NCBI RefSeq assembly: GCF_013315695.1
Contig: NZ_CP054353.1
Source of the DNA: Escherichia coli
Lineage (GTDB): Bacteria; Pseudomonadota; Gammaproteobacteria; Enterobacterales; Enterobacteriaceae
Length of the DNA stretch: 64,000 nucleotides
Reading direction: 5' to 3' (one strand)
This document shows positions 29,349-55,699 of the stretch, piece after piece (positions within the stretch are counted from its first letter, which is position 1; each line of letters opens with the position of its first letter). The notes beneath the pieces were generated by a model. That model saw only the letters and a list, made by a program, of their open reading frames with translations. It had not been told where the DNA came from and did no database searches. The translations under genes were made by a program, and so were the position numbers.

Positions 29349-29424
<76 letters not shown>

Positions 29425-29478
29425 GTTTAAAAGACATCGGCGTCAAGCGGATGTCTGGCTGAAAGGCCTGAAGAATTT

Positions 29479-29552
29479 GGCGCGTTAACAAAGCGGTTAT
29501 GTAGCGGATTGCAAATCCGTCTAGTCCGGTTCGACTCCGGAACGCGCCTCCA
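29479..29552 (+). tRNA. cysT: tRNA-Cys (GCA)
   Basis: ggcgcgttaacaaagcggttatgtagcggattgcaaatccgtctagtccggttcgactccggaacgcgcctcca. Confidence 0.95.
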
Positions 29553-29564
29553 CTTTCTTCCCGA

Positions 29565-29651
29565 GCCCGGATGGTGGAATCGGTAGACACAAGGGATTTA
29601 AAATCCCTCGGCGTTCGCGCTGTGCGGGTTCAAGTCCCGCTCCGGGTACCA
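29565..29651 (+). tRNA. leuZ: tRNA-Leu (UAA)
   Basis: 87-nt class II tRNA gcccggatggtggaatcggtagacacaagggatttaaaatccc...ccgggtacca. Confidence 0.95.
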
Positions 29652-41703: not shown

Positions 41704-42482
41704 AACCTGTTCCTTATTCTGTGAACTTCAGGTGACATTAAAGCTTTACTCCTAATGGAGAAACGACGCAATCCCAACTCAGTTAAACAGGTAAATATTA
41801 GTCTGGTCATTAGTAAATACAATTAATTAATTGCTCTTGGTTATCATATGATTTCAACTGTATTTATAAGAAAATAATGTACTGATTTCCCATATTGAAC
41901 AAGTGGTTAATATATGTAAAACATTTTATTAATATTAGGTTGATTGTTGCCTTTCTTTGTAGTTAATTAGTTTGTTGTGCGGTAAGTGTTTGTTTAAAAA
42001 TGGCTTATCTGGTATTGCATTAAAGCGATTATTTATAGCAGATGATTATTTACGGTGAGTTATTTTAACTGTGCGCAACATCCCATTTCGATTATTCCTG
42101 TTTCATTTTTGCTTGCCAGTGTAGCGAAAAATTTTTTAACAGATTGAAATACACCCAAAACAAAAGTATGACTTATACATTTATGTTAAGTAATTGAGCG
42201 TTTTGCGTGATCTGCATCACACATTATTGAAAATCGCAGCCCCCCTCCGTTGTATGTGCGTGTAGTGACGAGTACAGTTGCGTCGATTTAGGAAAAATCT
42301 TAGATAAGTGTAAAGACTCCCTTCTATTTGTAAGGACTTATTAAACCAAAAAGGTGGGTCTGCTTATTGCAGCTTATCGCAACTATTCTAATGCTAATTA
42401 TTTTTTACCGGGGCTTCCCGGCGACATCACGGGGTGCGGTGTGACCGCATAAAAATAAAGTTGGTTATTCTGGGTGGGAATA
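41704..42482 (+). promoter_or_regulatory. flhDC promoter and long 5' leader region (AT-rich), no IS insertion
   Basis: About 780-bp AT-rich intergenic region upstream of flhD; searched for IS termini and found none. Confidence 0.6.
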
Positions 42483-42835: not shown

Positions 42836-43414
42836 ATGAGTGAAAAAAGCATTGTTCAGGAAGCGCGGGATATTCAGCTGGCAATGGAATTGATCACCCT
42901 GGGCGCTCGTTTGCAGATGCTAGAAAGCGAAACACAGTTAAGTCGCGGACGTCTGATAAAACTCTATAAAGAACTGCGCGGAAGCCCACCGCCGAAAGGC
43001 ATGCTGCCATTCTCAACCGACTGGTTTATGACCTGGGAACAAAATGTTCATGCTTCGATGTTCTGTAATGCATGGCAGTTTTTACTGAAAACTGGCTTGT
43101 GTAATGGCGTTGATGCGGTGATCAAAGCCTACCGTTTATACCTTGAACAGTGCCCGCAAGCAGAAGAAGGACCGCTGCTGGCATTAACCCGTGCCTGGAC
43201 ATTGGTGCGGTTTGTTGAAAGTGGATTACTGCAACTTTCCAGCTGCAACTGCTGCGGCGGCAATTTTATTACCCACGCTCACCAGCCTGTTGGCAGCTTT
43301 GCCTGCAGCTTATGTCAGCCGCCATCCCGGGCAGTAAAAAGACGTAAACTTTCCCAGAATCCTGCCGATATTATCCCACAACTGCTGGATGAACAGAGAG
43401 TACAGGCTGTTTAA
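42836..43414 (+). CDS. flhC: Flagellar master regulator FlhC
   Basis: 192 aa with zinc-binding cysteines. Confidence 0.95.
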
Positions 43415-43819
43415 CTGATACGGTGTGGCGAAACATTCCAGCAGCGGTAACGATGTACCGCTGCTTTTTTTTGCCCCTATCGCGTGTTAACGCCTGACGA
43501 CTGAACATCCTGTCATGGTCAACAGTGGAAGGATGATGTCGTGCTTATCTTATTAGGTTACCTGGTTGTTCTCGGTACAGTTTTCGGCGGTTATTTGATG
43601 ACCGGTGGAAGCCTTGGAGCACTCTATCAACCCGCTGAACTGGTGATTATTGCCGGTGCAGGGATTGGGTCGTTTATCGTCGGCAATAATGGCAAAGCGA
43701 TTAAAGGCACGCTGAAGGCGCTGCCGTTGCTGTTTCGTCGCTCCAAATACACCAAAGCAATGTATATGGATCTGCTGGCTCTGCTTTATCGGTTGATGGC
43801 GAAATCGCGGCAGATGGGG

Positions 43820-45245
43820 TAATGCCAGTCAGTTAAGCAACTGACTGGCTCTTTTTCGGGGCTGTGGGGTATTTCCAGGGCCTCTCCTTTACCACTCTCG
43901 GGAAGGCCCTTTCCCTTCTTGTCGGTAATTTCACAAGTTGTCCCATACTTGCAAGATCGCGCATCAGCTCCGGTATACGTCCCGGTGAAGCGCCCTGCAA
44001 TGTCATCAGCATTCTCATCACCATTCCGCATGATTCTGAGAAACTCAGTTGATTCGGCCAGTAACCTTTCAGATGTTCCGCCATTTTAATCATCTGATAT
44101 CTCACCAGATTATAAGCCAGTAAGACACCCCACAGCTCTTGCTCCACAAGCTCCGGTTTTTTACTTCTCAGCGTCAGCCTGCTCAGTTGCATCGTCTGTT
44201 TTATCTCCCTGTATCCCAGTTCGATTTCCCAGCGATGACTGTACAGATCCGCCATTTCTCCTCCGGGGAAGCGCATGGCGTCCGTCATCGACGTCAGCAG
44301 ATGGCAGACTTTTCCTTTGCGCGTCACGGTCAGCAGGCGGGCTGTCACTTCATTTCCCAGTCCCGGCCACTTTTTTCGTGCCTGCGGGCTGGTTTTCAGC
44401 TTCACCAGATGATCGCCTTTACCCAGTTTTCTGATCTCTTCATATTGCGCTCCCTTTCTGAGAGGTATCATCCAGTGGCGGTGTTCTCCCGCCAGGCTCC
44501 AGGCATTTAACAGTCCCAGTGAGTAATAACCTTTATCCATTAACGTCAGAGTGTTATCGCCGGTTTGTTCTATAAGTTGCTCAGCAAGCTCATTTTCGCT
44601 GTTCTTCATCGTGCCGAAGGCTGCAGCCGTCAGCAGATGGCTGGTCAGTTCCATCTGGCAGACCATTTTGACCTGCGGGTAGAGCGCCGGGTTCCCGGCA
44701 TGTGTCTGGCGGGGGAAGGCTGCATCGTTCTCTGGTGTATCCGGTGTGCGCCAGAACACACCATCGATGGCCAGCAGGGTCAGGCCGCACCAGTGCGGAT
44801 GCGGCGTGGCGTTATGCCAGAGCTGCGCTGTTTTCGTGAACACGCGGCGGACAGCCTCACTTCCCAGGCGCTGGCGGGCCTGAATAACGGCACTGGGGGC
44901 AACGAAGGGGCGATTGCCCGGCAGCATGATGTCCAGGCGATTCACAATCTGGTGAAGAGGTTCTTTACGCTCAAGCGCCATGCCAACAATACACCAGACC
45001 ATCATTTCGAGGGGAAGACGGCGCTTGCGTAGCGTTACAGTACCTGATTCGGCAAGGCAACGAGAGATGAGTTCGGGGTCGAGGTAATCCCCCAGAGAAG
45101 TCAGTGGGTTACGCAGAGAATCGTAACGGGATACCAGATCAAGAGCCTGTCCAATGTGCATAAAAAAATCCGGAAACAAGTGAGCGTTTCCGGATTCTTA
45201 CACAGCCACTGGATCGGTCAACTGATCCTTAACTGATCGGCATTA
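43820..45245 (-). mobile_element. IS4 insertion sequence (1426 bp) with 12-bp target-site duplication
   Basis: Imperfect terminal IRs taatgccagtcagttaag / taatgccgatcagttaag; flanked by direct repeats cggcagatgggg at 43808-43819 and 45246-45257. Confidence 0.9.
43833..45161 (-). CDS. insG: IS4 transposase (DDE, InsG)
   Basis: 442 aa from [28 protein letters not shown]. Confidence 0.9.
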
Positions 45246-45862
45246 CGGCAGATGGGGATGTTTTCGCTGGAACGCGATATTGAAAATCCCCGTGAGAGTG
45301 AGATCTTCGCCAGCTACCCACGCATCCTTGCGGATAGCGTCATGCTTGAATTTATCGTCGATTATCTGCGCCTGATTATCAGTGGTCACATGAACACCTT
45401 CGAAATCGAAGCTCTGATGGATGAAGAGATTGAGACGCACGAAAGCGAGGCAGAAGTCCCGGCGAACAGTCTGGCGCTGGTCGGGGACTCACTTCCGGCG
45501 TTTGGTATTGTTGCGGCTGTAATGGGGGTCGTTCACGCGTTAGGTTCAGCCGATCGTCCTGCCGCCGAGCTGGGGGCGCTTATCGCTCATGCGATGGTGG
45601 GGACTTTCCTCGGTATTTTATTGGCTTACGGATTTATTTCCCCATTAGCGAGTGTTTTACGTCAGAAAAGCGCCGAAACCAGCAAAATGATGCAGTGCGT
45701 CAAAGTCACTCTGCTTTCAAATCTGAACGGTTACGCACCGCCTATCGCCGTTGAGTTTGGTCGCAAAACGCTCTATTCCAGCGAACGTCCGTCGTTTATT
45801 GAGCTGGAAGAGCATGTGCGTGCGGTGAAAAATCCGCAACAACAGACGACAACCGAGGAAGC

Positions 45863-48758
<2,896 letters not shown>

Positions 48759-49282: not shown

Positions 49283-49310
49283 TTCTCCCGATTTCCTCAA
49301 TTGCAATGAA

Positions 49311-49337
49311 CCCGATGACCTGCGCATCGGGTTTTTT
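49311..49337 (+). terminator. Rho-independent terminator after cheW
   Basis: cccgatg acctgcg catcggg followed by tttttt. Confidence 0.6.
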
Positions 49338-49368
49338 ATTTCAGTTTCGCGGCGGGTGGCATCAGCAA

Positions 49369-49395
49369 TAAAGTTTCCCCCTTCCTTGCCGATAA
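49369..49395 (+). promoter_or_regulatory. Sigma-28 promoter of the tar-cheRBYZ operon
   Basis: taaagttt-N11-gccgataa, exact consensus. Confidence 0.75.
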
Positions 49396-49426
49396 CGAGA
49401 TCAACTTGTTTTCAGGAAGGTGCCTT

Positions 49427-51088
49427 ATGATTAACCGTATCCGCGTAGTCACGCTGTTGGTAATGGTGCTGGGGGTATTCGCACTGTTACAGCTTATTTC
49501 CGGCAGTCTGTTTTTTTCTTCCCTTCACCATAGCCAGAAGAGCTTTGTGGTTTCCAATAAATTACGGGAACAGCAGGGCGAGCTGACGTCAACATGGGAT
49601 TTAATGCTGCAAACGCGCATTAACCTGAGTCGTTCAGCGGTGCGGATGATGATGGATTCATCCAATCAGCAAAGTAATGCCAAAGTTGAATTGCTCGATA
49701 GTGCCAGGAAAACATTGGCCCAGGCCGCGACTCATTATAAAAAATTCAAAAGCATGGCACCGTTACCTGAAATGGTCGCTACCAGTCGTAATATTGATGA
49801 AAAATATAAAAACTATCACACAGCGTTAACTGAACTGATTGATTATCTTGATTATGGCAATACTGGAGCTTATTTCGCTCAGCCAACCCAGGGAATGCAA
49901 AATGCAATGGGCGAAGCGTTTGCTCAGTACGCCCTCAGCAGTGAAAAACTGTATCGCGATATCATCACTGACAACGCAGATGATTACCGATTTGCCCAGT
50001 GGCAACTGGCGGTTATCGCGCTGGTGGTGGTATTGATTCTGCTGGTGGCGTGGTACGGCATTCGCCGTATGTTGCTTACACCGCTGGCAAAAATTATTGC
50101 GCATATTCGCGAAATTGCCGGTGGTAACCTGGCGAATACCCTGACCATTGACGGGCGCAGTGAAATGGGCGACCTGGCGCAGAGTGTTTCACATATGCAA
50201 CGCTCTTTGACTGACACCGTCACTCATGTGCGCGAAGGTTCAGATGCCATCTATGCCGGTACCCGTGAAATTGCGGCGGGCAACACCGATCTTTCCTCCC
50301 GTACTGAACAGCAGGCATCCGCGCTGGAAGAAACTGCCGCCAGTATGGAGCAGCTCACCGCGACAGTGAAGCAAAACGCCGATAACGCCCGCCAGGCCTC
50401 GCAACTGGCGCAAAGTGCCTCCGACACCGCCCAGCACGGCGGCAAAGTGGTGGATGGCGTAGTGAAAACGATGCATGAGATCGCCGATAGTTCGAAGAAA
50501 ATTGCCGACATTATCAGCGTTATCGATGGTATTGCCTTCCAGACTAATATCCTCGCGCTGAATGCCGCTGTTGAAGCCGCGCGAGCGGGTGAACAGGGCC
50601 GTGGTTTTGCCGTGGTGGCGGGTGAAGTGCGTAATCTTGCCAGTCGCAGTGCACAGGCGGCAAAAGAGATCAAAGCCCTCATTGAAGACTCCGTCTCGCG
50701 CGTTGATACCGGTTCGGTGCTGGTCGAAAGCGCTGGGGAAACAATGAACAATATCGTCAATGCTGTCACTCGCGTGACTGACATTATGGGCGAGATTGCA
50801 TCAGCATCGGATGAACAGAGCCGTGGCATCGATCAAGTCGCATTGGCGGTTTCGGAAATGGATCGCGTCACGCAACAGAACGCATCGCTGGTGCAGGAAT
50901 CAGCTGCCGCCGCAGCTGCGCTGGAAGAACAGGCGAGTCGTTTAACGCAAGCGGTTTCCGCGTTCCGTCTGGCAGCCAGCCCACTCACCAATAAACCGCA
51001 AACACCATCCCGTCCTGCCAGTGAGCAACCACCGGCACAGCCACGACTGCGAATTGCTGAACAAGATCCAAACTGGGAAACATTTTGA
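49427..51088 (+). CDS. tar: Methyl-accepting chemotaxis protein II (aspartate receptor) Tar
   Basis: 553 aa from [23 protein letters not shown]-terminal NWETF pentapeptide. Confidence 0.95.
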
Positions 51089-51133: not shown

Positions 51134-51360
51134 ATGTTTAATCGTATTCGAATTTCGACCACGCTGTTTTTAATTTTGATTCTCTGCGGGATCTTGCAGA
51201 TTGGCAGTAACGGCATGTCTTTTGGGCATTTCGCGACGATTTGCAACGACTGAATCAGGCCGACCATCTTTCGTCGCGTGTGGCGGTATTTACCCTTGAA
51301 GAACATGAAGTAGCACGACATGAGTCGGCGCAGTTACAAATTGCGCCAGTGGTATCCTGA
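51134..51360 (+). pseudogene. tap: tap (MCP IV, dipeptide receptor) remnant: N-terminal 30 codons, frameshift, and C-terminal ~30 codons joined by an internal deletion
   Basis: Begins MFNRIRISTTLFLILILCGILQIGSNGMSF then shifts frame; the 3' end encodes ...RVAVFTLEEHEVARHESAQLQIAPVVS* in another frame; expected gene is about 1.6 kb but only 227 bp is present. Confidence 0.75.
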
Positions 51361-51378: not shown

Positions 51379-52239
51379 ATGACTTCATCTCTGCCCTGTG
51401 GGCAAACGTCTTTATTGTTACAGATGACCGAGCGCCTGGCGCTTTCCGACGCGCATTTTCGGCGGATAAGTCAATTGATCTATCAACGCGCCGGGATCGT
51501 TCTGGCTGACCATAAACGCGACATGGTTTACAACCGACTGGTTCGTCGTTTGCGTGCGCTGGGACTGGCGGATTTCGGTCATTACCTGAACTTGCTGGAA
51601 TCTAATCAGCACAGCGGTGAGTGGCAGGCGTTTATCAATTCGCTGACCACGAATCTGACGGCATTTTTCCGTGAGGCACACCATTTTCCTCTGCTCGCGG
51701 ATCACGCACGTCGCCGTTCTGGCGAGTATCGCGTATGGAGCGCGGCGGCTTCGACCGGCGAAGAGCCGTACAGCATTGCGATGACACTGGCTGACACATT
51801 GGGCACCGCGCCCGGACGCTGGAAAGTGTTTGCCAGCGACATTGACACCGAAGTGCTGGAAAAAGCCAGAAGCGGTATTTATCGCCATGAAGAGTTGAAA
51901 AATCTGACGCCGCAGCAACTGCAGCGGTACTTCATGCGAGGGACGGGACCGCATCAAGGGCTGGTACGCGTGCGTCAGGAATTGGCGAATTATGTTGATT
52001 TTGCCCCGCTGAATTTACTGGCGAAACAGTACACCGTGCCGGGGCCGTTTGATGCGATCTTCTGTCGTAACGTCATGATCTACTTCGATCAAACTACCCA
52101 GCAGGAGATTTTGCGCCGCTTTGTTCCGCTCCTTAAACCCGACGGATTGCTGTTTGCGGGTCACTCTGAAAACTTTAGCCACCTTGAGCGCCGCTTCACG
52201 CTGCGTGGTCAGACGGTGTATGCGCTAAGTAAGGATTAA
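51379..52239 (+). CDS. cheR: Chemotaxis methyltransferase CheR
   Basis: 286-aa ORF. Confidence 0.95.
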
Positions 52240-54558: not shown

Positions 54559-55593
54559 GTGTCTGACGAGATCGACGACAAAACAGAAGCCCCCACACCT
54601 CACCGACTAGAAAAAGCGCGGGAAGAGGGGCAAATCCCGCGTTCCCGTGAACTGACTTCACTGCTGATTTTGCTGGTGGGCGTTAGTGTTATCTGGTTTG
54701 GCGGTGTGGCGCTGGCCCGTCGATTGTCGGGCATGCTCTCCGCAGGGCTGCATTTTGATCACAGTATTATCAATGACCCGAATCTGATCCTCGGGCAGAT
54801 TATTCTGCTGATCAGAGAAGCCATGCTGGCGCTGTTACCGCTGATTAGCGGCGTGGTGCTGGTGGCGATTATTTCTCCGGTTATGTTGGGGGGGCTGGTA
54901 TTTAGTGGAAAATCCTTGCAGCCGAAGTTTTCCAAACTCAACCCGCTACCGGGCATTAAACGGATGTTCTCGGCACAGACTGGCGCGGAGTTGCTTAAGG
55001 CAATTTTGAAAACCATCCTGGTTGGCAGCGTGACGGGGTTTTTTCTCTGGCATCACTGGCCGCAGATGATGCGCTTAATGGCCGAGTCTCCGATTACCGC
55101 CATGGGTAATGCGATGGATCTGGTAGGGCTATGCGCGCTGCTGGTGGTGCTTGGTGTCATTCCAATGGTGGGATTTGACGTCTTTTTCCAAATCTTCAGC
55201 CACCTGAAAAAGCTGCGAATGTCACGGCAGGATATTCGTGATGAGTTCAAACAAAGCGAAGGCGACCCCCATGTTAAAGGGCGGATCCGTCAGATGCAGC
55301 GAGCGGCCGCACGGCGTCGGATGATGGCCGATGTGCCGAAAGCGGATGTCATTGTCAATAACCCGACCCACTATTCGGTAGCGTTGCAGTATGACGAAAA
55401 CAAAATGAGCGCACCGAAAGTGGTCGCTAAAGGTGCAGGGCTGGTCGCGCTGCGCATTCGTGAAATTGGCGCTGAAAATAACGTCCCGACGCTTGAAGCG
55501 CCGCCGCTGGCGCGTGCGCTGTATCGACATGCGGAGATCGGTCAACAAATCCCGGGTCAACTGTACGCCGCGGTGGCGGAAGTGCTGGCCTGA
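54559..55593 (+). CDS. flhB: Flagellar export switch protein FlhB, terminated early by a TGA at 55591-55593 (344 aa instead of about 382)
   Basis: GTG start, (M)SDEIDDKTEAPTPHRLEKAREEGQIPR; after the TGA the same frame stays open for 37 more codons and ends at the TAA that overlaps the flhA ATG. Confidence 0.85.
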   Translation: MSDEIDDKTEAPTPHRLEKAREEGQIPRSRELTSLLILLVGVSVIWFGGVALARRLSGMLSAGLHFDHSIINDPNLILGQIILLIREAMLALLPLISGVVLVAIISPVMLGGLVFSGKSLQPKFSKLNPLPGIKRMFSAQTGAELLKAILKTILVGSVTGFFLWHHWPQMMRLMAESPITAMGNAMDLVGLCALLVVLGVIPMVGFDVFFQIFSHLKKLRMSRQDIRDEFKQSEGDPHVKGRIRQMQRAAARRRMMADVPKADVIVNNPTHYSVALQYDENKMSAPKVVAKGAGLVALRIREIGAENNVPTLEAPPLARALYRHAEIGQQIPGQLYAAVAEVLA

Positions 55594-55699
55594 GTCTGGC
55601 AACTGAAACGCTGGCGTCTGGCTGGTGGACAACGCCCTGTACAACCTACTCATCTTCCGGTGCCGGAAGCCCTGGATTTTATTAACGAGAAACCGACCC

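Follow-up and report, generated by a model that had tools for sequence, protein, structure and literature searches.

An IS4 insertion in motA of Escherichia coli, its repeatedly used target site and the older flagellar lesions beside it

The window analysed here is a 64,000-nt stretch of the Escherichia coli contig NZ_CP054353.1 (assembly GCF_013315695.1), in which the flagellar stator gene motA is split by a complete copy of the insertion sequence (IS) element IS4. The insertion is in all likelihood a neutral third hit in a decaying flagellar regulon, driven by an IS4 hot spot and coming after an IS1 deletion of fliE-fliR and a premature stop codon in flhB. The observed part of this explanation comprises the anatomy of the insertion, an empty site in a sister genome, the order of the lesions, the recurrence of the event and the match of the site to the target pattern of IS4. 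The copy itself is an ordinary insertion by a long-known element, and it is probably not the cause of the strain's presumed non-motility.

Structure of the insertion and the empty site

The disrupted locus contains the following features, in window coordinates.

43345..43371, plus strand: intact sigma-28-type promoter motif upstream of motA, TAAACTTT-N11-GCCGATAT, read from the sequence
43541..43822, plus strand: motA 5' fragment, codons 1-93 and a TAA supplied by IS4; retains transmembrane segments TM1-TM2 and R90, lacks E98 and TM3-TM4
43808..43819, no strand: left target duplication CGGCAGATGGGG, MotA codons R90-Q91-M92-G93; a single copy at the empty site of the sister genome MSB1_4I
43820..45245, minus strand: complete IS4, 1426 bp
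43820..43837, no strand: IS4 inverted repeat IRR, at the 3' end of the transposase gene; starts with TAA in the motA frame, ending translation right after G93
43833..45161, minus strand: IS4 transposase coding sequence, 442 amino acids (aa) from ATG; the open reading frame (ORF) reaches TTG 45179 (448 aa)
45228..45245, no strand: IS4 inverted repeat IRL, at the 5' end of the transposase gene; 16 of 18 positions match the other end
45246..45257, no strand: right target duplication, the second copy of CGGCAGATGGGG
45258..45866, plus strand: motA 3' fragment, codons 94-295 and stop

The earlier note on this DNA, made from the letters alone, had described motA as split after codon 93 by a 1426-bp IS4 with an intact 442-aa transposase and a flanking 12-bp direct repeat. 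Its coordinates are exact and the transposase frame is open, lying antisense to motA, with the annotated start of the NCBI pipeline PGAP at the upstream TTG. The repeat abuts both ends of the element and is found nowhere else in the window on either strand; a 12-bp match at these fixed positions would occur by chance with a probability of about 6e-8. The terminal inverted repeats are 18 bp long (TAATGCCAGTCAGTTAAG / TAATGCCGATCAGTTAAG). Ends of the IS4 subgroup begin with -AATR, and its members make target duplications of 10-13 bp (PMC2266710). Both ends of this copy start with TAATGCC, so that an in-frame TAA follows G93 of MotA in either orientation of the element.

Over its full length the copy in motA is 100% identical to copies annotated as 'IS4-like element IS4 family transposase' in many complete E. 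coli genomes. The element is present in 2686 of the 5426 complete E. coli genomes, with a median of one copy, and the window holds a single copy. The transposase scores 304.5 bits against the NCBIfam model NF033592 (transpos_IS4_1; cut-off 115). The length of about 1.4 kb, identity to the reference, terminal repeats, single ORF matching the model of the IS4-type DDE transposase, 12-bp duplication and target arms all place the element in IS4. Intact ends and an intact ORF imply a copy that should be competent for transposition.

In-silico removal of 43820-45257 restores an uninterrupted MotA ORF of 295 aa, as the earlier note had stated, and this ORF scores 385.4 bits against TIGR03818 (cut-off 303.8; positions 1-281 of 282). 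Removal of the element with both repeat copies left in place would yield 299 aa, with RQMG duplicated. As encoded, the 5' fragment (positions 1-93) and the 3' fragment reach 105.1 and 265.7 bits. Both values lie under the cut-off, which makes motA a pseudogene in its present state. R90 and E98, the pair of charged MotA loop residues in contact with FliG, end up on opposite sides of the insertion, and a stub of 93 residues lacking TM3 and TM4 presumably cannot form a stator. A 204-aa ORF from 45252 uses the duplicated M92 as its first codon; no ribosome-binding site is evident for it. The promoter at 43345..43371 is a candidate, labelled by its likeness to the sigma-28 consensus.

The closest complete genomes, judged by the flanks, are MSB1_4I (NZ_LR898874.1) and NZ_OZ547117.1, and the sister-strain comparison proposed in the earlier note bears it out. 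MSB1_4I has an empty site with one copy of CGGCAGATGGGG in an intact motA of 295 codons, and differs from the excised window by 3 single-nucleotide polymorphisms (SNPs) in 24,743 bp; OZ547117 is likewise without IS4 in motA. The insertion arose by simple transposition of IS4 with a 12-bp target duplication.

Older flagellar lesions and the order of events

Two other lesions affect flagellar genes in the window.

9668..9751, minus strand: fliR remnant, the last 27 codons; annotated as a fliR pseudogene in MSB1_4I
9754..10521, minus strand: IS1, 768 bp, marking where about 15 kb were deleted; not flanked by a target duplication
55591..55593, plus strand: premature stop in flhB at codon 345 of 382 (TGG to stop, W345*); the C-terminal 38 residues are lost

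At the deletion the order is rcsA (8756-9379), fliR remnant, IS1 and the yedK side. IS1 is flanked by the yedK side and by fliR at codon -27 with no 8-9-bp repeat, the arrangement that marks an IS1-mediated adjacent deletion. The closely related genome MS 21-1 has at this locus yedK, an ompC-like porin gene, ybcM, ybcL, emrE, fliE, fliFGHIJK, fliLMNOPQR and rcsA. Relative to it, about 15 kb are gone from the window, comprising the porin gene, ybcM, ybcL, emrE and fliE-fliR, and with the latter the genes for the MS ring, C ring, ATPase and export gate. The exact IS1-fliR junction is found in two of the 5426 complete genomes, MSB1_4I and OZ547117, and the annotation of MSB1_4I matches the window at the deletion. 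IS1 also lies next to fliR remnants in several other E. coli genomes. For fliE-fliK, 122 of the 5426 complete genomes give no match, and complete loss of the cluster is thus not rare in the species. A fliE-fliK search for a copy in the sister genome gave, among the matches listed, many B2-type genomes tied at about 100% identity.

The stop in flhB (54559-55707) removes the proline-rich C-terminal tail, and the gene is a PGAP pseudogene in MSB1_4I. The exact allele occurs in two of the 5385 complete genomes that have the region, again the sisters MSB1_4I and OZ547117. Since both sisters share both lesions and have no IS4 in motA, the fliE-fliR deletion and the flhB stop are older than the insertion, and the lineage was probably unable to build a basal body before IS4 came. 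W345* was rejected as sole proof of a non-flagellate state, because Salmonella FlhB truncations to residues 1-350 still support motility, according to a statement in PMC7771051 that cites Inoue 2019; the fliE-fliR deletion is the decisive lesion.

The other flagellar and chemotaxis genes of the window (flhDC, fliA, fliC, fliD, motB, the che genes and flhA) are full length, so the decay is recent. The sister MSB1_4I has private changes in MotA (I109S, codon 109) and in FliD (443 aa versus 468), which fits relaxed selection after the fliE-fliR deletion.

The earlier note implied that motA::IS4 decides motility and chemotaxis. That view gives way to the order of events, in which the deletion and the flhB stop come first.

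Target preference of IS4

For 17 further IS4 copies the empty site was reconstructed from fetched sequence. These sites share an architecture of an A-run, 3-4 nt, a GC-rich core of 11-13 bp that is duplicated, a further 3-4 nt and a T-run. Many natural sites resemble intergenic bidirectional terminator hairpins (yihL-typA, aroA-ycaL, adhE-tdk, pdxK-crr). The motA target, gAAAtcg[CGGCAGATGGGG]atgTTTT, conforms to this pattern. The spacing measured here is AAA-N18/19-TTT; the published consensus is reportedly AAA-N20-TTT.

A half-site weight matrix was built from seven unrelated IS4 sites picked without regard to their flanks. With it, the motA site with a 12-bp duplication ranks first of 187,593 combinations of position and length in the excised window (62.5 kb). 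It still ranks first when four further sites are added to the matrix; these (L002-L005) were fetched from copies H16-H45, which had been ranked by likeness of their flanks to motA, and are a biased sample. That the motA stretch is the best match to the IS4 pattern in 62.5 kb explains why IS4 lands there identically in unrelated lineages and in either orientation. The next-best matches are terminator-like sequences at about 33305 (yecR-azuC) and about 33594 (azuC-yecJ), for example the azuC terminator AAAAAACCTGCTCCGGCAGGTTTTTTT; these are predicted targets and are unoccupied.

Recurrence at the motA site

An exact-sequence look-up in the index of public assemblies places the 93-aa MotA stub in 151 blocks. 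Nine contigs were returned, seven of which enter IS4 directly after codon 93, in the orientation of the window (L014-L017, L019) or the opposite one (L018, L020). In the remaining two (L021, L022) the 93-aa product arises from a contig end at codon 93 with no IS4 sequence, and they were not counted. Five further contigs (L030-L032, L039, L042) begin at the junction and are uninformative on orientation.

Over 3.3 kb upstream, the flanks differ from the window at 3, 14, 77 or 87-92 positions. The distant flanks differ from each other by 16-51 positions per 3.3 kb, save the near-identical pair L016 and L017 (4 differences). These differences were taken from BLAST and MAFFT alignments, ungapped counts being unusable where 1-bp indels occur. 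The nearest differences are 19 bp (L015, L019) and 335 bp upstream of the junction and 54 bp downstream of it. Contigs that carry the right junction, in both orientations, have the identical 12-bp duplication, with SNPs from 54 bp downstream. Ordinary E. coli genomes in which motA is intact match the flanks of L015 and L018 at 100% identity, and flhB is intact in other insertion-bearing lineages (L035, L036).

Because the two orientations stand on several allelic backgrounds, these data would mean at least six independent IS4 insertions at the same motA bonds, in at least six E. coli backgrounds. Unnoticed in the earlier note, the site has been used recurrently, in several lineages and both ways round. 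No description of this hot spot was found in the searchable literature, a scope outside which the Mahillon and Chandler review and the classical IS4 papers fall; the recurrent site is a modest new observation. For spotting the insertion in read sets, the k-mers GCGGCAGATGGGGTAATGCCAG and GCGGCAGATGGGGTAATGCCGA are named.

A second hot spot for IS4 is adhE-tdk, occupied in L008 and L009 (CE10, IAI39) and in L047 (SWHEFF_68) in opposite orientations and with 12- versus 11-bp duplications. The near relatives OZ546925 and OZ546911 each have 16 places matching a query that included 200 bp of motA, compared with a median of 1. This suggests about 15 copies of IS4 in each, and the element looks active in this clade.

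Two apparent motA frameshifts in metagenome scaffolds (L023, L024) proved to be scaffold gaps flanked by 9-bp duplications and were set aside. The duplications, GTATATGGA and ATATGGATC, lie at about 1976-1995 of L023 and about 1288-1307 of L024 (motA codons ~74-77). They indicate that in two other samples a different IS, one making 9-bp duplications, inserted in motA some 50 bp upstream from where IS4 lands.

Alternatives to a neutral hot-spot insertion

The broadest reading of the recurrence makes MotA codons 90-93 a species-wide, sequence-encoded landing pad for IS4 that time and again would switch off the stator together with the chemotaxis genes behind it, resembling a contingency locus and reversible in principle by precise excision across the 12-bp repeat. 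If this were true, populations bearing IS4 would repeatedly yield paralysed, non-chemotactic variants at far above the point-mutation rate. The evidence supports recurrence and target specificity, not elevated rates, reversibility or a selective role, and the proposal is considered improbable.

Slightly less probable again is that the insertion was a functional lesion, abolishing swimming and chemotaxis in a previously motile strain and spread by its advantage (energy saving, gut immune evasion). The truncation of motA after codon 93 and the predicted polarity would suit it, as would the intact flhB of the insertion lineages L035 and L036 and the sampling of the window's clone in at least five independent datasets. 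Recurrence across lineages is also expected under positive selection. Selection alone, however, would scatter hits along the gene rather than repeat the same element, bonds and 12-bp duplication, and the motA site is the top-scoring IS4 target of the region. Moreover, the fliE-fliR deletion and the flhB stop are older and common to the IS4-free sisters, and a cell without MS ring, C ring and export gate had no motility left to lose.

A single origin followed by spread between lineages through homologous recombination is very unlikely and largely refuted. It would account for the identical position and 12-bp duplication in all cases, and E. coli is known to recombine often. Recombination cannot, however, interconvert the two observed orientations, and the flanks already diverge close to the junction, at 19 bp and 335 bp on its upstream side and at 54 bp on its downstream side. 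At adhE-tdk, too, the site is occupied both ways, with duplications of different length.

Polarity and the downstream genes

Two hairpins in IS4 bear on the expression of motB, cheA and cheW.

43824..43849 (with tail to 43857), plus strand: terminator-like hairpin with a perfect 11-bp stem, followed by TCTTTTTC
45164..45199, minus strand: second terminator-like hairpin, with a U7 run, shortly before the transposase ATG; faces transcripts entering the other end of IS4

The first hairpin has a 4-nt loop, starts 5 nt inside IS4 and has the RNA tail UCUUUUU; it meets transcripts arriving from motA. The 71-nt fold that holds it (43800-43870) has an energy of -30.3 kcal/mol (z = -3.85). A GC-containing hairpin with a directly adjoining U-run is what defines an intrinsic terminator, and such an element is predicted here at the motA-side end of IS4. 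On the minus strand, the 96-nt fold 45150-45245 with the second hairpin reaches -35.1 kcal/mol (z = -4.71). A promoter-like site, TTGACC-16-AAGAAT (45221-45194, minus strand), lies just upstream of the second hairpin and points toward the transposase. Hairpins at both ends would shield the transposase from outside promoters. IS4 thus appears to be insulated at both ends, and hence polar in either orientation.

The start of motB overlaps the stop of motA, suggesting translational coupling. Together with the predicted terminator in the path from motA, this makes polarity on motB-cheA-cheW, raised in the earlier note, likely as a molecular effect; what does not carry over is a consequence for the phenotype of this strain, where the effect is deemed silent. 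The note had also allowed that an outward promoter might compensate, and some IS elements do give rise to outward or hybrid promoters. Taken further, IS4 would be a regulatory insertion that keeps motB-cheA-cheW on independently of motA. This is less likely still than spread by recombination. At the motB-proximal end (45000-45260) a consensus scan predicts no outward, plus-strand promoter, and the sole promoter-like site at that end reads inward. The overlap of motB with the motA stop also argues against it, and with no basal body there would be no use for the downstream products.

Under the preferred explanation, a neutral third hit, simple transposition of IS4 would have made staggered cuts 12 bp apart in motA, repair of which would duplicate codons 90-93. 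The in-frame TAA at the IS4 end would leave a 93-residue MotA stub, and the terminal hairpin-terminator would stop transcription into motB-cheA-cheW. Through the earlier loss of fliE-fliR and the truncation of flhB, no hook-basal body would be made. Retention of FlgM in basal-body mutants silences sigma-28-dependent operons; FlgM would here stay inside the cell and leave the sigma-28-dependent genes, the motA operon among them, unexpressed. Since the basal-body genes were lost earlier, the hit in motA and any polarity on motB-cheAW would be phenotypically silent. Termination and polarity, the silencing of class 3 genes and neutrality are the parts of the explanation that we infer.

Integrity of the junctions

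Misplacement of an IS4 copy into motA by the assembler is practically discounted: IS copies are well known for causing misassembly, and no supporting evidence was found, the duplication being perfect and placed exactly at both ends of IS4, the excision clean, and independent short-read and metagenome assemblies ending in or crossing each junction. The earlier note had named an assembly chimera as what would undo its claim, and independent public assemblies argue against this. Each of the two junctions is present in assemblies from the window's clone (L014 and L029, both ERZ27307367; L034, ERZ27238810; L028, SRR16681823; L038, SRR15832845; L040, ERZ28586735), the left junction in contig L014 and the right one in L025/L034, L028, L029, L038 and L040. 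All these flanks are identical to the window or nearly so, with 0-3 SNPs in 3-10 kb for the contigs of the right junction. L034 has motA::IS4 together with the 344-aa FlhB, which places it in the same clone as the window.

Points that weigh against the explanation

Several considerations count against reading motA::IS4 as a neutral third hit at a hot spot. The insertion is absent, either way round, from all 5426 complete RefSeq E. coli genomes, which makes each event rare; a synthetic junction was used for the opposite orientation. The number of independent events comes from divergence of the flanks, not from a phylogeny, and the target model is built from very few sites. Termination at the IS4 hairpin and the missing outward promoter are predictions from consensus scans and folding. 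FlhB 1-344 may keep export activity, the stub covering positions 1-339 of the 348 of TIGR00328. The visible part of the genome is 64 kb, and a copy of fliE-fliR elsewhere is unlikely.

Other features in the window

The following RNA features were found with Rfam, in their usual E. coli positions.

61270-61577, plus strand: MicL small RNA
8034-8120, plus strand: DsrA small RNA
49302-49379, minus strand: C0465 small RNA
29349-29648, plus strand: cluster of three tRNAs (Gly, Cys, Leu in the sister annotation)

Between tar (49406-51088) and cheR (51379-52239) lies a short, frameshifted remnant of tap (about 51134-51285), which the sister genome's annotation lists as a pseudogene ('Tar ligand binding domain'). 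Contigs of other lineages have this 39-aa remnant as well, and the tap deletion is therefore old and widespread. At the left end of the window (1 to about 7026), a phage tail module with baseplate, tail-fibre and tail-fibre-assembly genes and a recombinase/invertase gene adjoins a truncated dgcQ (yedQ, 6088-7026), as if a prophage had inserted into this diguanylate cyclase gene. In its tail-fibre part the module resembles an invertible host-range segment.

Implications and comparison with known systems

For annotation, motA is a pseudogene carrying the third lesion, and the entry for the strain should read non-flagellate irrespective of motA. Given its recurrence at identical bonds in unrelated lineages, motA::IS4 is unsuitable as a marker of shared descent. 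The strict target rule of IS4 can be used for predicting where the element strikes, and the motA site is a convenient natural target for work on target recognition in the IS4 subgroup, which is poorly characterised relative to Tn5 and Tn10.

Among flagellar IS events, the insertions of IS1 or IS5 upstream of flhDC in K-12 are activating promoter insertions that raise motility. They are similar to the present case in neighbourhood and in the phenotype concerned, while motA::IS4 abolishes the function of a structural gene; the region upstream of flhD in the window (about 770 bp, 41704-42473) has no IS. E. coli B and BL21 have an IS1-associated fli deletion, and the present window likewise shows a stepwise, IS-driven loss of the flagellar regulon. 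In Shigella, too, flagellar decay proceeds by IS deletion and insertion steps; here the host is an otherwise ordinary commensal or ExPEC-like (extraintestinal pathogenic) E. coli and the decay is recent. The IS burden of Shigella is described in PMC7373316 and PMC4445032.

The element in motA is the same as IS4 of E. coli K-12 (insG; ISfinder IS4, IS4 family and subgroup), with 1426 bp, imperfect 18-bp repeats, a 442-aa DDE transposase and duplications of 11-13 bp. It differs from the other genomic copies in location alone, the motA position being one at which no complete RefSeq E. coli genome has a copy. Hot spots for IS4 are reported in galT and in the pheST attenuator from work of 1979-1984 (Starlinger's group; Mayaux et al.), with reuse of the exact site in either orientation and a pseudo-palindromic target of A-run and T-run. 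The same pattern is seen at motA, adhE-tdk, yihL-typA, pdxK-crr and aroA-ycaL. Most of the natural sites in this analysis are terminator-like hairpins between genes, whereas the motA site is coding and only weakly palindromic.

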